Assembly (NCBI GenBank): GCA_963729715.1
Contig: CAVSPA010000004.1
Coordinates: 256,001 to 320,000, forward strand
Source: an uncultured delta proteobacterium
GTDB lineage: Bacteria; Desulfobacterota; Syntrophia; Syntrophales; UBA2185
Length of the DNA stretch: 64,000 nt
Reading direction: 5' to 3'
Shown here: positions 32,864 to 54,368 of the stretch, piece after piece
Layout: every line of letters begins with the position of its first letter
How positions within the stretch are numbered: the stretch's first letter is position 1
Position numbers and translations under genes: made by a program
Notes under the pieces: model-generated
What the model was told of the DNA's origin: nothing
The model's database searches: none
Seen by the model: only the letters and a program-made list of their open reading frames with translations

Positions 32864-32882
32864 ACGTGTCCTCCATCAAAAT

Positions 32883-32911
32883 AAAAAAGGCCTGGAAAAT
32901 TCACGGCCTTT
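32883..32911 (-). terminator. Second terminator hairpin of the Phe leader
   Basis: Minus strand AAAGGCC-gtgaattttcca-GGCCTTTTTT followed by ATTTTG. Confidence 0.65.
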
Positions 32912-32914
32912 CGC

Positions 32915-32953
32915 AAAAAAAAGCCGTCGGCAGTATTTGGTCTGCCCACGGCT
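32915..32953 (-). terminator. Attenuator terminator of the Phe leader
   Basis: Minus strand AGCCGTGGGCAG-accaaata-CTGCCGACGGC then T8. Confidence 0.9.
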
Positions 32954-32973
32954 ACATTTAAGAAAATCTCAGG

Positions 32974-33048
32974 TCATGAGCGCGGCAGGCAGACCTCACT
33001 AAAGAAACCAAAAAAGACAAAAAAACTTTCTGCCTGCATGTGCGTCAT
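32974..33048 (-). CDS. Phe-rich attenuation leader peptide MTHMQAESFFVFFGFFSEVCLPRS (24 aa)
   Basis: SD AAGGA before ATG; 6 Phe codons in 8; overlaps antiterminator arm; terminator follows. Confidence 0.88.
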   Translation of the reverse strand: MTHMQAESFFVFFGFFSEVCLPRS

Positions 33049-33086
33049 ATCCTTTATTCCGAGTGCTTATCTACAGTATACTCAGC

Positions 33087-33115
33087 CTTATAAAGCCAAT
33101 TGAGACCTGTGTCAA
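33087..33115 (-). promoter_or_regulatory. Sigma70-type promoter of the Phe leader/ABC operon
   Basis: Minus strand TTGACA-17 bp-TATAAG, about 40 nt before the leader ATG. Confidence 0.75.
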
Positions 33116-36443: not shown

Positions 36444-36593
36444 GTAAAGAACCCCGTGCTTCCGCACGGGGCATTAAAACTCAAAATCTAACTGCTTGGG
36501 AGCTTTTCTTCATGCTTATGATACTCAATTCCTAAAGAACGGAAACCCTTTCCTCCCCGTGCTTCCGCACGGGGTATCCAGGGTTTGATTTTC
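36444..36593 (+). mobile_element. About 150-bp non-autonomous IS200/IS605-superfamily-like element (MITE)
   Basis: Identical hairpin CCCCGTGC-TTCC-GCACGGGG at 36452-36471 and 36555-36574; begins GTAAAGAACCCC, ends TTCCTCCCC..GGGGTATCC..TTTTC before ATGAA. Confidence 0.6.
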
Positions 36594-47511: not shown

Positions 47512-47540
47512 TTGACAAGACATCCATGCACTGGTATAAA
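47512..47540 (+). promoter_or_regulatory. Sigma70 promoter of the trp operon
   Basis: TTGACA-17 bp-TATAAA with TG extended -10. Confidence 0.8.
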
Positions 47541-47570
47541 AGCACAAAATATCGGAAGGACAGTCTATAA

Positions 47571-47642
47571 TTGAACTACTTATTTTTAACAATCATCAAC
47601 TGGTGGTGGCAGAATCCAATGCAGGGGTTTGTCCACCGCTGA
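47571..47642 (+). CDS. trpL: Trp attenuation leader peptide MNYLFLTIINWWWQNPMQGFVHR (23 aa, TTG start)
   Basis: SD GGAAGGA; three tandem TGG at 47601-47609; precedes terminator and trpE. Confidence 0.9.
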   Translation: MNYLFLTIINWWWQNPMQGFVHR

Positions 47643-47664
47643 TTTATTTCGTTGACTAAAGCAT

Positions 47665-47700
47665 AGCCGTGGAGACCTCGTCGGACTCCGCGGCTTTTTT
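47665..47700 (+). terminator. trp attenuator terminator
   Basis: AGCCGTGGAG..CTCCGCGGCT stem with T run; antiterminator arm TCCACCGCT at 47632-47640. Confidence 0.9.
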
Positions 47701-47713
47701 GTTATTGGAGCAC

Positions 47714-47750
47714 AAGAAAGGCCGCAATTGTAAGCGGCCTTTCTTATTTT
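47714..47750 (+). terminator. Second terminator-like hairpin of the trp leader
   Basis: Perfect 12-bp stem AAGAAAGGCCGC-aattgtaa-GCGGCCTTTCTT then ATTTT. Confidence 0.7.
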
Positions 47751-47789
47751 AGCTGAAGCACAAAAGTAGAACGGAAGGAACTTTCGAGA

Positions 47790-49286
47790 ATGTACTACCC
47801 GGCCTTTGACCAGTTTGTGAAATTTGCCGAAGAGGGAAACCTCATCCCCGTGTACAGGGAGATACTCGCCGACATAGATACGCCGGTCTCCGCCCTCATG
47901 AAGCTCAGTACGAAAGCCCATGTCTTTCTTCTGGAGAGCGTAGAGGGGGGCGAGAAATGGGGGCGCTATACATTTCTCGGTTCAGACCCGCGCATTGTCT
48001 TCAAGGTCAGGGGTGACGATGTGCTGATATCTGAAAACAGCAAGAGCAGAGTCCAGAGACACGAAGGGAATCCTCTCAGATATCTGAAGGATTTATTGAA
48101 CTCCTATCGGCCTGTTCTCGTGGATGGGCTGCCGCGGTTTTACGGCGGCGCCGTGGGATTTCTCGGCTACGATATGGTTCGCTATTTTGAAAAAATCCCT
48201 GCCCGTGCTTTGAACGACGTGAAGATGGACGATGCAGTCTTCCTCATCACGGATACGCTGATTGTCTTTGACAATATCAGGCACACGATCAAAGTGGTCT
48301 CATGCGCGGCAACCGAAGGCACCGCGTCCCTCAAAGATGTTTACGACGAGACCATCGATAAGATAGACAGGCTGATAGCAATCATCAGAGCGCCTGTTGA
48401 AGCAACGGAGCGCTACAGAAAGGTGGAAAACGAGGTACCCCTCGGGTCTAATATGTCGGCGGAAGACTTTAAGGCAACGGTCGAGAAGGCCAAGGAATAC
48501 ATCGTCGCCGGCGACATCATACAGGTCGTTCTGTCCCAGCGTTTTCAGGCGAAGAACGGGATAGACCCGCTCGACCTCTACAGGGCGCTCCGTTATGTGA
48601 ACCCCTCCCCTTACCTCTTCTTTCTCAAGCTTGATGAGACGTTTTTGATAGGCTCCTCGCCTGAGGTCATGGTCAGGCTTGACGAAGGAGTCGCGGAACT
48701 CCGGCCCATTGCAGGAACTCGCAGAAGAGGAAGAAACGAGCAGGAAGACAGGCAGTTTGCCCATGAGCTCCTCGAGGATCCGAAAGAAAGGGCCGAACAC
48801 GTGATGCTTGTTGACCTAGGGAGAAATGACCTGGGAAGAATAGCACGGACAGGCAGTGTGCAGGTCAATCAGCTTATGGTCGTGGAGCGGTATTCACACG
48901 TCATGCATCTTGTCACGAACATCCAGGCGCAATTGGCCCCCGGAAAAGATTGTTTTGATCTCCTTGCGGCATCGTTTCCCGCCGGCACACTATCCGGTGC
49001 GCCTAAGGTCAGGGCCATGGAGATCATCGATGAACTGGAGCCGACCAGACGCGGCATTTACGGGGGAGCCGTCGGTTACTTCAGTTACACGGGCAATATG
49101 GACCTCTGCATAACCATCCGAACCATGCTGGTCAAAGACGGAAAGATTTTCATACAGGTGGGCGCCGGCATCGTAGCCGATTCCGACCCGGAGAAGGAAT
49201 ATCAGGAAACGGTAAATAAGGGCGAAGCGATGATGCAGGCCATACGCCTTGCCGCGTCCGGTTTCGAACTGAGAAAGAATATCTGA
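47790..49286 (+). CDS. trpE: Anthranilate synthase component I
   Basis: LLES, NPSPY, GSSPE, PIAGT, AEHVMLVDLGRND, GAPK. Confidence 0.97.
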   Translation: MYYPAFDQFVKFAEEGNLIPVYREILADIDTPVSALMKLSTKAHVFLLESVEGGEKWGRYTFLGSDPRIVFKVRGDDVLISENSKSRVQRHEGNPLRYLKDLLNSYRPVLVDGLPRFYGGAVGFLGYDMVRYFEKIPARALNDVKMDDAVFLITDTLIVFDNIRHTIKVVSCAATEGTASLKDVYDETIDKIDRLIAIIRAPVEATERYRKVENEVPLGSNMSAEDFKATVEKAKEYIVAGDIIQVVLSQRFQAKNGIDPLDLYRALRYVNPSPYLFFLKLDETFLIGSSPEVMVRLDEGVAELRPIAGTRRRGRNEQEDRQFAHELLEDPKERAEHVMLVDLGRNDLGRIARTGSVQVNQLMVVERYSHVMHLVTNIQAQLAPGKDCFDLLAASFPAGTLSGAPKVRAMEIIDELEPTRRGIYGGAVGYFSYTGNMDLCITIRTMLVKDGKIFIQVGAGIVADSDPEKEYQETVNKGEAMMQAIRLAASGFELRKNI

Positions 49287-49297
49287 GGGAGCAACGC

Positions 49298-49885
49298 ATG
49301 ATTCTGATGATCGACAATTATGATTCCTTTACATACAACCTCGTTCAATATCTCGGCCAACTCGACCAGGCGGTTGCAGTCTATCGCAATGACGAGATAA
49401 CCCTAAATGACATAAGAAACATCGCCCCCGAAGCCATCTTTCTCTCCCCCGGCCCGTGTACGCCGAAAGAGGCGGGGATCACTGTCGATGTCATCAGGGA
49501 ATTTCATAAATCAATACCTATCATGGGGGTATGTCTCGGGCACCAGGCCATCGGCTATGCCTTCGGAGGCAATGTGGTCAGGGCAGACAGGCTCATGCAC
49601 GGGCAGACCTCCCCCATCATCAACGATGGAAAGACGATCTTCAAAGGCCTCCCCAATCCCTTCATCGCCGGTCGCTACCACTCCCTGCTGATTGAGCAAG
49701 CCTCGCTGCCCTCATGTCTCATGATCAGTGCGAGGACAGAGGAAGGAGAAATAATGGGCGTGAGGCATCAGGAGTATGCTGTGGAGGGGATACAGTTCCA
49801 TCCTGAATCCATCCTGACACCGCAGGGAAAACGGATATTGAGGAATTTTTTGGAGTTAATTATAAAAAAGGAGAGACTGCAATGA
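49298..49885 (+). CDS. trpG: Anthranilate synthase component II
   Basis: [27 protein letters not shown]. Confidence 0.96.
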
Positions 49886-50892
49886 TTAAGGAAGCAATTG
49901 CCAAGGTAGTAAACCGCGAAGACCTCAATGAGCCTAAAATGATGGAGGTCATGGATGAAGTCATGGACGGCAAAGCGACGCCCGCGCAGATAGCCGCTTT
50001 TATGACCGGCCTCAGGGTCAAGGGTGAAACCGTTGCCGAGGTTACAGGCGCTACCCGCATCATGCGCAGAAAAGCCACGAGGATAGACGCCCGGTCCTCG
50101 ATCATTGTGGATACCTGCGGGACCGGCGGCGACGGCATGCAGACTTTCAATATCTCCACTACCGCCGCCTTCGTCGTGTCTGCTGCAGGCTTGACGGTTG
50201 CCAAGCACGGGAATCGTGCTGTCTCGAGCGGGTGTGGGAGCGCCGACGTTCTGGAAGCATTGGGCGTCAAGATCGATGCCCAGCCGGAGATTGTCGAAGA
50301 GTGCATCCATCAGATCGGCATTGGTTTTCTCTTCGCGCCTAAACTACACAGTGCGATGAAATATGCCATCGGCCCACGCAGGGAGATCGGGATACGGACG
50401 ATATTCAACATGCTTGGACCTTTGACAAATCCCGCCGGCGCTACATCTCAGCTCATCGGCGTCTATGATGCAAGACTTACGGAGATGTTTGCCGGCGTTC
50501 TTAAGAACCTTGGCACAAAGGCGGCCTTCGTGGTTCATGGCTCGGACGGTCTGGATGAGGCAACCGTAACCGGGAAGACACGCGTCACGGAACTAAGGGG
50601 CGGTCTTATCACCACCTATGATATCGATCCGCAGTTCTTCTTCGGCGACATTTTTCCAGGCGAGGCGCTTCTCGGTGGTGACGCATCGGTGAATGCAGAG
50701 ATTACAAAGAGTGTATTGACCGGTGCCGCCGGGGCCTGCAGAAACATTGTTCTTCTCAACGCGGCTTTGGCAATTATGGCGGGCGAAAGGGCCAAAACCA
50801 TCAAGGATGGAATCGAGATAGCCAGGGAATGCATAGACGGCGGCGCCGCCGTAAAAAAACTACAGGCCTTGATCGAGCTCAGCAACAGTTGA
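49882..50892 (+). CDS. trpD: Anthranilate phosphoribosyltransferase
   Basis: [23 protein letters not shown]. Confidence 0.98.
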
Positions 50893-50905
50893 ACGGATTG
50901 TCAAC

Positions 50906-51682
50906 ATGATTTTAGAAAGGATTATCGAAGTAAAGAAGGATGAAATCGCTGATCTGAAAAGGAGAAGGCCGCTTCAGGAGTTGAAACATGCTATTGCCGA
51001 CATCCCTTGCCCTCGCAATTTCTCTGAAGCCATAAGCGGACGGCAATGCGCTATCGTTGCGGAAATCAAGAGGCGCTCGCCCTCAAAGGGAATCTTGAGA
51101 AAGGATTTTGATCCTGTCCGGTTTGCCCTCATCTACGAAGAGAGCGGCGCTGCGGCTGCCTCCGTCCTCACCGATAAGGCATTCTTTGGCGGTGATGAAG
51201 CTAATCTCGCTGATATAAGAATATGCGTCGGTCTGCCTCTCCTGAGAAAAGATTTCATCATCGACCTCTATCAGATTTATGAGACCCGTTATCTCCAGGC
51301 GGATGCAATCCTGCTCATTGCAGGAATCCTCGAAAGGGAGCAGCTGAGAGAATACGCCGGTATTGCACAATCTCTCGGTCTTTCGGTACTCTGCGAGGTG
51401 CACTCTGAGGAAGAGTTGGACAAGGCGCTCGCCTCCCGGGCCAGGATCATAGGGATTAATAACAGGGATCTCACAACCTTTTCGGTGGATTTGAATACCA
51501 GCATAAGTCTCGCTGTCTCCGTTCCCGCGGACAGGATCATCGTAAGCGAAAGCGGGATCCGGTCCAGAAGCGACATTGAGACCTTAATGAATGCCGGCAT
51601 TCATGCATTTCTGATCGGCGAGACACTGATGACGTCTGACGATATGGGGAAGAAGTTGCAAGAGCTTCTGGGCAACATATAA
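50906..51682 (+). CDS. trpC: Indole-3-glycerol phosphate synthase
   Basis: AEIKRRSPSKG, LRKDF, GINNRDL, SESGI. Confidence 0.98.
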   Translation: MILERIIEVKKDEIADLKRRRPLQELKHAIADIPCPRNFSEAISGRQCAIVAEIKRRSPSKGILRKDFDPVRFALIYEESGAAAASVLTDKAFFGGDEANLADIRICVGLPLLRKDFIIDLYQIYETRYLQADAILLIAGILEREQLREYAGIAQSLGLSVLCEVHSEEELDKALASRARIIGINNRDLTTFSVDLNTSISLAVSVPADRIIVSESGIRSRSDIETLMNAGIHAFLIGETLMTSDDMGKKLQELLGNI

Positions 51683-51701
51683 AGAACAGAAAGAACGAAT
51701 A

Positions 51702-52370
51702 ATGGAAATAAAGATCTGCGGGATTACAAATATGGAAGACGCAGTCATGGCCTTTGCATACGGTGCGGATGCACTGGGCTTTATCTTTTATGAGAAGAGC
51801 CCGCGATACGTGAGCCCGGAAACAGCGATGTGCGTCATACGGAATCTCCCGGACGATATTTCAAAAGTAGGCGTCTTTGTGAATCATGATAGCCACGCCG
51901 TGAGAGAAATATATGACTTCTGCGGGCTTGACATGATTCAGCTTCACGGTGATGAATCACCTGCCTACTGCCGCGAATTCCCGCAATCCATCCTCATCAA
52001 GGCAATCTCTCCCGGTAGCGAAGAAAACCTCGGCAGCGTAAAGCAATACCGCGTCAAAGCGATCATAATAGACACGCGTGAACTTGGACTCTACGGGGGA
52101 ACTGGGAAGAAATCCAATTGGAAACTTGCAGCCAAATTGAAGGAAATGCACCCGCTCGTCCTCTCGGGGGGATTGAACGCTGGCAATGTTCGGGAGGCAA
52201 TCAGAACAGTTTCACCGCATGCCGTAGATGTCAACAGCGGCGTTGAACTATCTGCCGGGAAAAAGGATCCCGAGAAAGTTCAGAGCATCATTGAGACTGT
52301 CCGCACTGCCGGGAACGAGAGCGCCATAAAAATATTTACGAGGAGAAATCATGCACAAGTCACTCCCTGA
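51702..52370 (+). CDS. trpF: Phosphoribosylanthranilate isomerase
   Basis: [24 protein letters not shown]. Confidence 0.97.
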
Positions 52371-53544
52371 TAAGAAAGGACACTTCGGAATCTTCGGCGG
52401 CCGCTATGTAGCGGAAACTCTTATGCCTGCTCTCATACAGCTTGAGGAGGTCTATAAGGCAGCGAGAAAAGACAGACAGTTCAGGGACGAAATCGCCTAT
52501 TACCTTAGTGAATACGCAGGCAGGGAGACCCCGCTCTATTATGCAAAACGTCTCACGGAAGAGCTGGGTGGGGCAAGGATTTACCTCAAGCGCGAGGACC
52601 TCAGTCATACGGGCTCGCACAAGATAAACAATACTCTCGGCCAGGGACTTCTTGCGAGGCGTATGGGCAAAAAGAGGGTCATCGCGGAGACAGGCGCCGG
52701 TCAGCATGGCGTAGCCACGGCGACGGTGGCGGCTCTTTTCGGCATGGAATGCATGATCTTTATGGGAGAGGAGGATATCAGACGGCAGGCCCCCAATGTA
52801 TTTCGTATGAAAATACTCGGCGCCGAGGTCGTGCCTGTGTCATCGGGAACGGCGACCCTCAAAGACGCCATGAATGAGGCGATGCGGCACTGGGTGGCTA
52901 GGGTAAGGGATACCTTCTATGTGATAGGCACTACGGCAGGGCCTCATCCTTACCCGATGATGGTCCGTGAATTTCAAAGTGTCATCGGGAAGGAGACAAA
53001 AAGGCAGATCATGAAGATTGAAGGCCGGCTTCCCGACGTCCTGATTGCCTGCATAGGCGGCGGCAGCAATGCCATGGGACTCTTCTATCCCTTTAAAGAC
53101 GCGACCAATGTTGAGATGATAGGAGTAGAAGCGGCGGGAAAGGGCATTACGACACGATACCATGCGGCAAGCATATCCGCCGGTAGCATCGGCGTCCTTC
53201 ATGGCAACAAGACCTACCTTCTTCAGGATGCAAATGGCCAGATTCGGGATGCCTACTCCATTGCCGCGGGACTCGACTATCCCGGAGTCGGCCCCGAGCA
53301 CGGCCATTTCCGCGATACAGGAAGGGCAACTTACGTGAGCGCTGACGACGATGAGGCAATCGCGGCCTTTATGCTCGTCTCCAGACTGGAAGGCATTATC
53401 CCCGCCATGGAGAGCGCCCACGCATTGGCGCACGCTTTTAAGCTCGCCCCCGCACTCGGCAAGAATAAGATCATCGTTGTGAACCTCTCCGGTAGGGGAG
53501 ATAAGGATGCGGAGATAATCTCACAGATCATCGACAAAAAATAG
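52351..53544 (+). CDS. trpB: Tryptophan synthase beta chain
   Basis: [32 protein letters not shown]. Confidence 0.98.
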
Positions 53545-53570
53545 TTCGTTCAAAATGGGGAGATGCTATT

Positions 53571-54368
53571 ATGACACGAAGAATCGAACGAAAGTTCCGA
53601 GACCTCAAGCAAAAAAAGGAGAAGGGGCTGGTTGTATATCTCACGGCCGGGGATCCCGACATGCAGACTACCCGCGGCCTTATACTCGCTCTTGAAGAAT
53701 CGGGTGTGGACATCATCGAAATCGGCGTTCCCTTTTCCGATCCAACTGCGGACGGCCCAGTGATCCAGGCTGCTTCGCAGAGGTCTCTCGATAAGGGAAC
53801 AACGCTCACCTGCATCCTTGATATGATAGAATCCCTAAGAACAGTCAGTGAGATTCCCGTTGTCCTCTTCGGTTATTATAATCCCATTTATTCGTTCGGC
53901 AATGAACGATTCGCGGCAAGGGCGAAGCGGGCGGGTGTGGACGGCATTCTTGTCATTGATCTGCCGCCGGAGGAATCGCATGAACTGAGGCGACACACTG
54001 ACCGGGCGGGTCTCGATTTCATTTCTCTCATCGCGCCCACAACCAGCGACAATCGCATCGCAGGAATTGCAGACAGTGCGTCCGGGTTTCTCTACTATAT
54101 CTCCATTACGGGAGTTACAGGAACGGCGCAGCCCCTGATGCAGAATATTGGAGTCGACGTAGAGCGCATCCGCAAAATAAGCGTCCTGCCCCTCGTGATC
54201 GGCTTCGGTATTTCAGTACCGCTGCAGGCCGCAGAGATCGCCTCCTGCGCTGATGGCGTCGTTATCGGGAGCGCTTTTGTGCGTCTCATTGAGGAATACG
54301 GCACCAAAGACGGCCTGATGCGTGTCGCATCGTCCTTCGTAAGGGATATCAAAAAAGCGCTTTCATAG
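53571..54368 (+). CDS. trpA: Tryptophan synthase alpha chain
   Basis: [33 protein letters not shown]. Confidence 0.98.

Follow-up and report, generated by a model that had tools for sequence, protein, structure and literature searches.

The his operon leader follows a six-segment scheme in which the pairings A:B, C:D and E:F stand against B:C and D:E. Here we describe a trp leader with six segments of its own, found in a 64,000-nucleotide stretch of DNA (the window; positions 256,001 to 320,000 of contig CAVSPA010000004.1) from an uncultured bacterium of the order Syntrophales. Its phylum is Thermodesulfobacteriota at NCBI, which we take to be the Desulfobacterota of the Genome Taxonomy Database (GTDB). 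The known mechanism at work in such a leader is ribosome-mediated attenuation; the new part would be a second, relayed terminator. We read the locus as a leader-peptide attenuator in which two serial terminator-shaped hairpins would be opened by one stalled ribosome through a relay helix, and as a real and conserved variant of ribosome-mediated attenuation that spans the phylum and probably relays between its two terminators. We give each of these statements a probability of about 0.65.

Several described systems resemble this locus in part. Like the Escherichia coli trp leader, trpL (Rfam RF00513; mechanism as given in the consulted parts of PMC1183508), it combines an open reading frame (ORF) bearing Trp codons, alternative helices 1:2, 2:3 and 3:4, and a U-tailed terminator before trpE. 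Unlike trpL, it has two extra segments and a second U-tailed hairpin, and no TrpR (PF01371) was found in this genome, which is 100% complete. By score it is not a member of the Trp_leader family RF00513 (16.9 bits against a gathering threshold of 41). The hisL leaders of Salmonella and E. coli resemble it in their additional hairpin and in pairings that alternate along a chain; here too, three hairpins in the predicted OFF state against two in the ON state, joined by a relay helix, are computed and conserved. In hisL, however, the extra hairpin precedes a single terminator, whereas here the middle hairpin is U-tailed and both could terminate. This tail is full in Syntrophales, so the last hairpin would not be the sole terminator. 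Sensor codons also differ, being Trp, Phe/Tyr or Val/Ile/Leu in the leaders of this design; the present one has Trp codons and a trp operon rather than His, and no His_leader match was listed.

Two further systems can be compared with it. The rimP leader of Gammaproteobacteria has tandem terminators with a conserved stem motif and no leader peptide, and protein control has been proposed for it (PMC2965389, consulted parts); its stems are mutually inverse, not relayed. The Rfam trpB motif RF04312 (PMC11109978, consulted parts) places antiterminator and terminator hairpins before trpB or transporters and is a two-hairpin riboswitch candidate of Firmicutes and Fusobacteria; the trp leader scores 22.4 bits with it, against 59. 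No Rfam match at gathering level, to a T-box, a riboswitch or any other family, was found in the window or at 19 related loci. Weak matches, 18 of them at the trp leader, lay far below threshold in the window, and no family for this design was found in Rfam. A literature search returned no description of relayed double terminators in the leader-peptide attenuators of this phylum, and Lopatovskaya et al. 2010, cited for RNA helix chains in the consulted part of PMC4833913, may already cover some leaders. Such a relay is likewise not described in the consulted parts of PMC11109978, PMC5864092, PMC3896937 and PMC4833913.

The anatomy of the trp leader is that of a leader-peptide attenuator (Table 1). 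An earlier note, made from the sequence of this window, had listed a promoter, a leader encoding three consecutive Trp (WWW), an antiterminator arm overlapping the stop codon, a terminator with six U and a second hairpin of 12 bp; all are present at the positions it gave. The promoter-like site is presumably the one used. It was missed by a simple promoter scan because that scan demanded T at position 6 of the -10 box, and TTGACA followed by 17 nt and TA or TT is found in all 26 related trp leaders examined. Helices 1:2, 2:3 and 3:4 exclude one another, and a ribosome at the stop codon would cover segment 2. This stop codon overlaps segment 2 and lies 23 nt upstream of terminator 1; the antiterminator sequence TCCACCGCT (47632-47640) ends on the first base of UGA. 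The antiterminator helix, 47624-47640 with 47665-47679, exceeds its first description in length, and its fold taken alone does not differ significantly from shuffles (z -1.0).

Before the first gene stand two predicted intrinsic terminators. The hairpin of terminator 1 spans 47665-47695 and has six U in its tail. Hairpin 2 (12 bp, 47714-47745) has a U-rich tail at 47740-47750; its G-C core is worth -13.7 kcal/mol, and the full 12 bp with the U tail paired -21.4. The complementarity between segments 4 and 5 that the earlier note reported exists over 11 positions, two of them G-U, and the isolated region folds as a 10-bp outer helix (z -2.0). The leader as a whole folds as 1:2 + 3:4 + 5:6 (z -5.05). 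Hairpin 2 was also considered as a means of hiding the trpE ribosome-binding site; this was rejected, the site lying 28 nt past the hairpin.

The predicted leader peptide varies in detail among relatives. In this genus its UUG start stands directly behind an in-frame UAA (window 47568-47573), and in other genera the start codon is AUG or GUG. An Arg codon takes the middle position (Trp-Arg-Trp) in another leader of the same genus (L009), while other related leaders keep the Trp run.

In the proposed mechanism, a ribosome stalled on the UGG (Trp) codons would free segment 2, which would pair with segment 3 once that emerges. Segment 4, left single, would pass the first U tract and capture segment 5 before segment 6 is synthesised, so that neither terminator forms. 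When Trp is plentiful, the ribosome at the stop codon would cover segment 2, and 3:4 would form and halt most polymerases. With segment 4 occupied, 5:6 would then be free to form and to catch the polymerases that escaped. Should the ribosome resume between the two sites, 4:5 would yield to 3:4 and re-arm terminator 2, giving a second checkpoint. The likely purpose would be low basal read-through in operons without a repressor. The lack of a detected TrpR agrees with a demand for little leak. PMC1183508, a modelling paper, argues likewise for the his operon, and its consulted parts tie the extra hairpin to low basal read-through in that repressor-less operon.

Computed energies are compatible with this order of events. 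By static nearest-neighbour estimates with rough ribosome footprints, which are not kinetics, the trp leader reaches -32.8 kcal/mol as 2:3 + 4:5, -30.9 as 2:3 + the 5:6 core and -34.8 as 3:4 + 5:6. The barrier to 5:6 is 9.6 kcal/mol with 4:5 formed and 2.9 without it; after loss of 2:3, the passage from 4:5 to 3:4 meets a barrier of 2.8 kcal/mol. In two sister leaders of this genome, one with Phe codons and one before a DAHP synthase gene, 2:3 + 4:5 is the minimum-energy fold when segment 5 has emerged.

Conservation was examined within the order. Sixty-one Syntrophales genomes were searched for trpE, the operon behind the Phe leader, DAHP synthase and ilvB, with matches in 54, 58, 61 and 61, respectively. 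The 30 best loci per gene were examined (120 in total, this genome included), a sample in which close relatives are over-represented. Contig ends truncated three trp loci and an ilvB leader went unparsed, leaving 116 with terminator 1; on inspection by eye one locus (L056) was judged unconvincing and put aside, and another (L230) was re-anchored by hand. Hairpin 2 is kept in 111 of the 116 parsed leaders (trp 26/27, Phe 27/30, DAHP synthase 29/30, ilvB 29/29), 10-37 nt downstream of terminator 1 and with a mean of 6.4-7.5 U per 9-nt tail. Its retention in orthologous leaders, along with that of the 4:5 complementarity, was a test that the earlier note had named beforehand. In most leaders 20-70 nt separate the end of hairpin 2 from the start codon. 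This leaves too little room for a new promoter, and some antitermination is therefore needed. In several leaders (L016, L024, L187-L193, L313, L316, L320), palindromic insertions of 60-250 nt separate the last terminator from the start codon.

The predicted relay helix itself is preserved more strictly than a control for duplication. Segment 5 tracks segment 4 across leader families (GCCGUG, GCCAUG, GCCGC) and inside the DAHP synthase set (L212). Pairing 3:6 served as the duplication control, since duplication alone would make it as good as 4:5. At five base-proximal stem positions in 87 distinct rows, 4:5 has 5 mismatches in 435, compared with 20 for 5:6 and 34 for 3:6. In an alignment of 109 rows (A3), the share of paired cells is 92.3% for 4:5, 94.5% for 5:6 and 80.1% for 3:6, and all three beat shuffles, which ignore kinship. 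Among Phe leaders, segment 5 has no mismatch with segment 4 at positions 3-4 (0/21), though its own partner has decayed there (10/21 and 9/21). Where C-G pairs in the hairpin-2 stem are swapped for U-A, 4:5 is left as G-U, both in the order (L041-L043, L057) and elsewhere in the phylum (L321, L326, L337, L396). In stability, 4:5 at least equals the 5:6 core in 19/26 trp, 16/27 Phe, 12/29 ilvB and 1/29 DAHP synthase leaders.

The earlier note had also pointed to an A-U to G-C covariation between the Phe and trp leaders. The ACGGC:GCCGU pairing of the Phe leader is present at the matching place, and the change itself is seen; as evidence of covariation it is weak, being one event in one genus. 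In 27 trp leaders this column is G-C in 10, A-U in 9, G-U in 6 and unpaired in 2, with G-C confined to the genus of the window. Even there, L009 has A opposite C.

Chance was assessed against the rest of the 3.76-Mb genome. A strict two-hairpin pattern occurs in it twice, at the trp and Phe leaders. A sequence-blind scan yielded 1095 terminator-like hairpins, 325 of them intergenic, and 21 tandem pairs; the Phe hairpin 2 (-8.9) fell below its cut-off, so that this leader is not among the pairs. The three strongest 4:5 duplexes of the 21 all belong to leader-peptide attenuators: DAHP synthase (C6:211049; -18.5, equalled by 0.04% of random pairs), trpE (-14.3, equalled by 0.9% of 20,000 random draws) and ilvB (C5:672926; -12.9, equalled by 1.7%). 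The concern, raised by the earlier note, that GGCCG-type stems might be common in the terminators of this genome was not borne out, with 13 of the 325 intergenic hairpins ending in RCGGY and 11 in GGCC. Two 8-mers are weak alone: AGCCGTGG occurs 3 times in the window, where 1.25 occurrences are expected and 10 of 100 shuffles give at least as many, and AAAGGCCG 8 times against 2.6, with a 2.4-fold enrichment genome-wide. A covariance model gave four strong matches in this genome, all belonging to its training set, which are the four double-terminator leaders; the next match stands at E 0.009.

Similar leaders extend well beyond the order. The covariance model trained on Syntrophales leaders (R1) has matches in 84 of 151 phylum genomes at E <= 0.001. 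Its 29 new top loci, 25 of them outside the order, all have a short ORF bearing a W, F/Y or V/I/L run (by eye), and precede trpE, TrpB-like PLP enzymes, DAHP synthases, aldolase-family enzymes, an aminotransferase, ilvB, binding proteins or a metallo-hydrolase. Leaders with aromatic codons (L279, L283, L285, L288, L291, L264, L270, L290) stand before class I/II aminotransferase, DeoC/LacD-family aldolase and metallo-hydrolase genes, and their codons are hints of the pathways in which these genes may act.

This model was kept out of the evidence on 4:5, as it favours its training stems, and a trpE-anchored survey was made instead. It matched 127 of the 151 genomes; 110 loci were examined, a script found a Trp-containing short ORF at 56, and 45 with leader and terminator were chosen by eye. 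Two hairpins are present in 32 of these 45 Trp leaders (29 by rule, three by eye). Over the 29, 4:5 duplexes average -16.3, compared with -13.8 for shuffled partners (0/10,000), and 24 lie past the 5th percentile of the genomic background. In one family (f29), the sequence of terminator 1 is different and the two hairpins are unlike, yet segment 5 pairs with segment 4. Direct pairing of segments 2 and 5 was tried as an alternative and rejected, being weaker than 2:3 in 32 of 32 rows (within about 2 kcal/mol in five). In some lineages the U tail of hairpin 1 is degenerate and that of hairpin 2 good (L365, L372, L378 and L379 of f44, L333 of f59, L369 of f35), resembling a his-like end state.

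A number of observations weigh against the relay reading. First, hairpin 2 is dispensable: 13 of the 45 phylum trp leaders have one terminator, as do four leaders in this genome. Second, the relay helix is not always the stronger partner. In the trp leader, hairpin 2 at its full 12 bp (-21.4) outweighs 4:5 (-15.6), and 5:6 does so in 28/29 DAHP synthase leaders; the relay must therefore act kinetically. Mismatches in 4:5 are present in L009, L203, L211, L213, L215 and L318. Third, segments 3 and 5 are near-copies, likewise 4 and 6, and duplication would also yield much of the 4:5 match. The 3:6 control beats its own shuffles (0/500 on alignment A3; -13.1 against -12.1 in the 29 phylum leaders, p 0.012), and in ilvB leaders the 3:6 duplex is stronger than 4:5 in 20/23 rows. 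Across the phylum, 4:5 exceeds 3:6 by a modest margin, in 23/29 leaders by a first parse and in 21/32 loci and 13/18 families by a second, both automatic parses having misplaced several rows through the extension of stems into U tails. Related genomes are, moreover, non-independent samples.

These observations leave room for other explanations. The one that survives best, which we nevertheless consider unlikely, keeps the relay and has a single terminating site, hairpin 2 being the terminator while hairpin 1, as in the his leader, serves for pausing or protection. The lineages with a poor tail on hairpin 1 and a good one on hairpin 2 fit it, and in them no route of control other than the relay is apparent. 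In Syntrophales, by contrast, hairpin 1 is the stronger of the two in 101/111 leaders and averages 6.8-7.3 U per 8 nt (here six U and -21.1 kcal/mol), and leaders with hairpin 1 alone exist.

Improbable, too, is the proposal that hairpin 2 arose by duplication of terminator 1 and persists either as a leaky second terminator outside any regulation or to stabilise or process the mRNA, with the 4:5 match a by-product. The near-identity of segments 3/5 and 4/6 in many leaders, the well-paired 3:6 control and the loss of hairpin 2 in some lineages are all as it would predict. It sits poorly with the lower mismatch count of 4:5 relative to both 5:6 and 3:6, the conservation of segment 5 in the Phe set while segment 6 decays, the stem swaps that keep 4:5 through G-U and the 4:5 pairing between the dissimilar hairpins of f29, and an unregulated terminator directly upstream of trpE would cap induction. 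Finally, it is highly improbable that a protein, for instance NusA or a dedicated antiterminator, recognises the conserved GCCRYGG arms as its motif or that hairpin 2 halts antisense transcription from the operon: arm sequences are conserved phylum-wide beyond strict pairing needs, a protein-recognised terminator motif has been proposed for the rimP leader (PMC2965389, consulted parts) and trp hairpin 2 is readable as a minus-strand terminator too, but four mutually exclusive helices on the same bases are enough to fix the sequence, the core varies among leader families and tolerates G-U swaps, and the A-rich flank required for minus-strand termination is not kept (e.g. L023, L053, L057).

The trp leader is one of four double-terminator leaders in this genome, the others preceding the Phe-leader operon, DAHP synthase and ilvB, and in each the sensor codons agree with the downstream pathway. 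This bears out the earlier suggestion that one attenuator scaffold is reused with different sensor codons (Trp, Phe, F/Y/W and Val/Ile/Leu) and that further copies exist for other amino acids, the latter two being additional to those it had described. Its description of the scaffold as lineage-specific is not supported as worded, since the design is present in many families of the phylum and Chloroflexota look-alikes are among the matches listed in a GTDB-wide pattern scan. That scan (at least 120 matches, most by chance) was used for leads only. Among the matches listed, L105, L127 and L133 (Anaerolineae), L165 (Chloroflexales) and L082 (Bacillota) show two hairpins arranged in this way after short ORFs that lack any amino-acid run. 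Downstream of L127 and L082 lie putative ABC ATPases resembling ABC-F proteins, a placement suggesting that these leaders detect ribosomes stalled by drugs or stress.

The Phe leader precedes an operon for a periplasmic binding protein, a liv-type ABC transporter and an acyl-CoA ligase, and likewise folds into three hairpins, 1:2, 3:4 and 5:6 (z -2.8). Its sensor codons follow segment 1. Segment 2 (window 33005-32990, minus strand) and the upper terminator stem are common to it and the DAHP synthase leader L187, and the two therefore probably share one ancestral leader. The four single-terminator leaders of the genome (L063-L066; C7:102575 (+), C5:309427 (-), C6:46154 (+) and C5:670423 (-)) have Leu runs upstream of a leuA-like gene and of a 2-oxoacid:ferredoxin oxidoreductase operon, and Ile runs upstream of a cimA-like gene and of a second ilvB; leuA-like and cimA-like are presumptive names given from sequence motifs. 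A repeated intergenic two-hairpin element, without 4:5 complementarity, is found at about 36458-36590 (+) of the window and at seven more genome sites, so that eight of the tandem pairs are near-identical copies of it.

Table 1. Features of the trp leader and of its double-terminator sister leaders. Positions refer to the window unless prefixed C5 or C6.
Feature	Position	Strand	Evidence or detail
Sigma-70-type promoter-like site: TTGACA (47512-47517), 17-nt spacer, TATAAA (47535-47540)	47512..47540	+	Sequence; use inferred
Shine-Dalgarno-like GGAAGGA serving the leader ORF	47554..47560	+	Sequence; role inferred
Leader ORF, 23 aa, UUG start, WWW codons 47601-47609	47571..47642	+	Trp run and stop position conserved
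Segment 1 (Trp codons); partner is segment 2 if ribosome absent	47602..47613	+	1:2 fold -19.8 kcal/mol, z -2.7
Segment 2, antiterminator arm, ends within stop codon	47624..47640	+	2:3 fold -17.2 kcal/mol
Terminator 1: segment 3 (47665-47679), segment 4 (47686-47700), U6 tail	47665..47700	+	-21.1 kcal/mol, z -4.3; conserved
Terminator 2: segment 5 (47714-47725), segment 6 (47734-47745), U-rich tail to 47750	47714..47750	+	Kept in 26/27 trp leaders
Alternative 4:5 relay helix, 47690-47700 with 47715-47725	47690..47725	+	-15.6 kcal/mol; conserved
Regulated operon trpE-trpG-trpD-trpC-trpF-trpB-trpA	47790..54368	+	NCBIfam matches
Phe leader, double-hairpin design	32877..33115	-	Promoter 33115-33087, Phe-rich ORF 33048-32974, terminator 1 32953-32922, hairpin 2 32908-32889 and U tail
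DAHP synthase leader, F/Y/W codons, two terminators (L061)	C6:211044-211133	+	
ilvB leader, Val/Ile/Leu codons, two terminators (L062)	C5:672850-672931	-	

Taken more broadly, these leaders may form a phylum-wide class of two-checkpoint attenuators in Desulfobacterota that replaces repressor control, with a series from one-terminator through relayed to his-like forms and reuse in Chloroflexota; this is a tentative proposal that we think somewhat likelier to fail than to hold. If it is true, a stalled ribosome must persist through two serial terminators, which would multiply the block on leak and lengthen the decision window. Present-day leaders would then represent successive evolutionary stages: a single terminator, a relayed pair, and a his-like state in which termination is left to the second hairpin. 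In Chloroflexota, ORFs that sense antibiotics or stress would be served by this RNA chassis as well. With the covariance model, transporters and enzymes can also be labelled according to the amino acid that their leaders would sense, and the cassette would offer a ready design for tight synthetic RNA switches.
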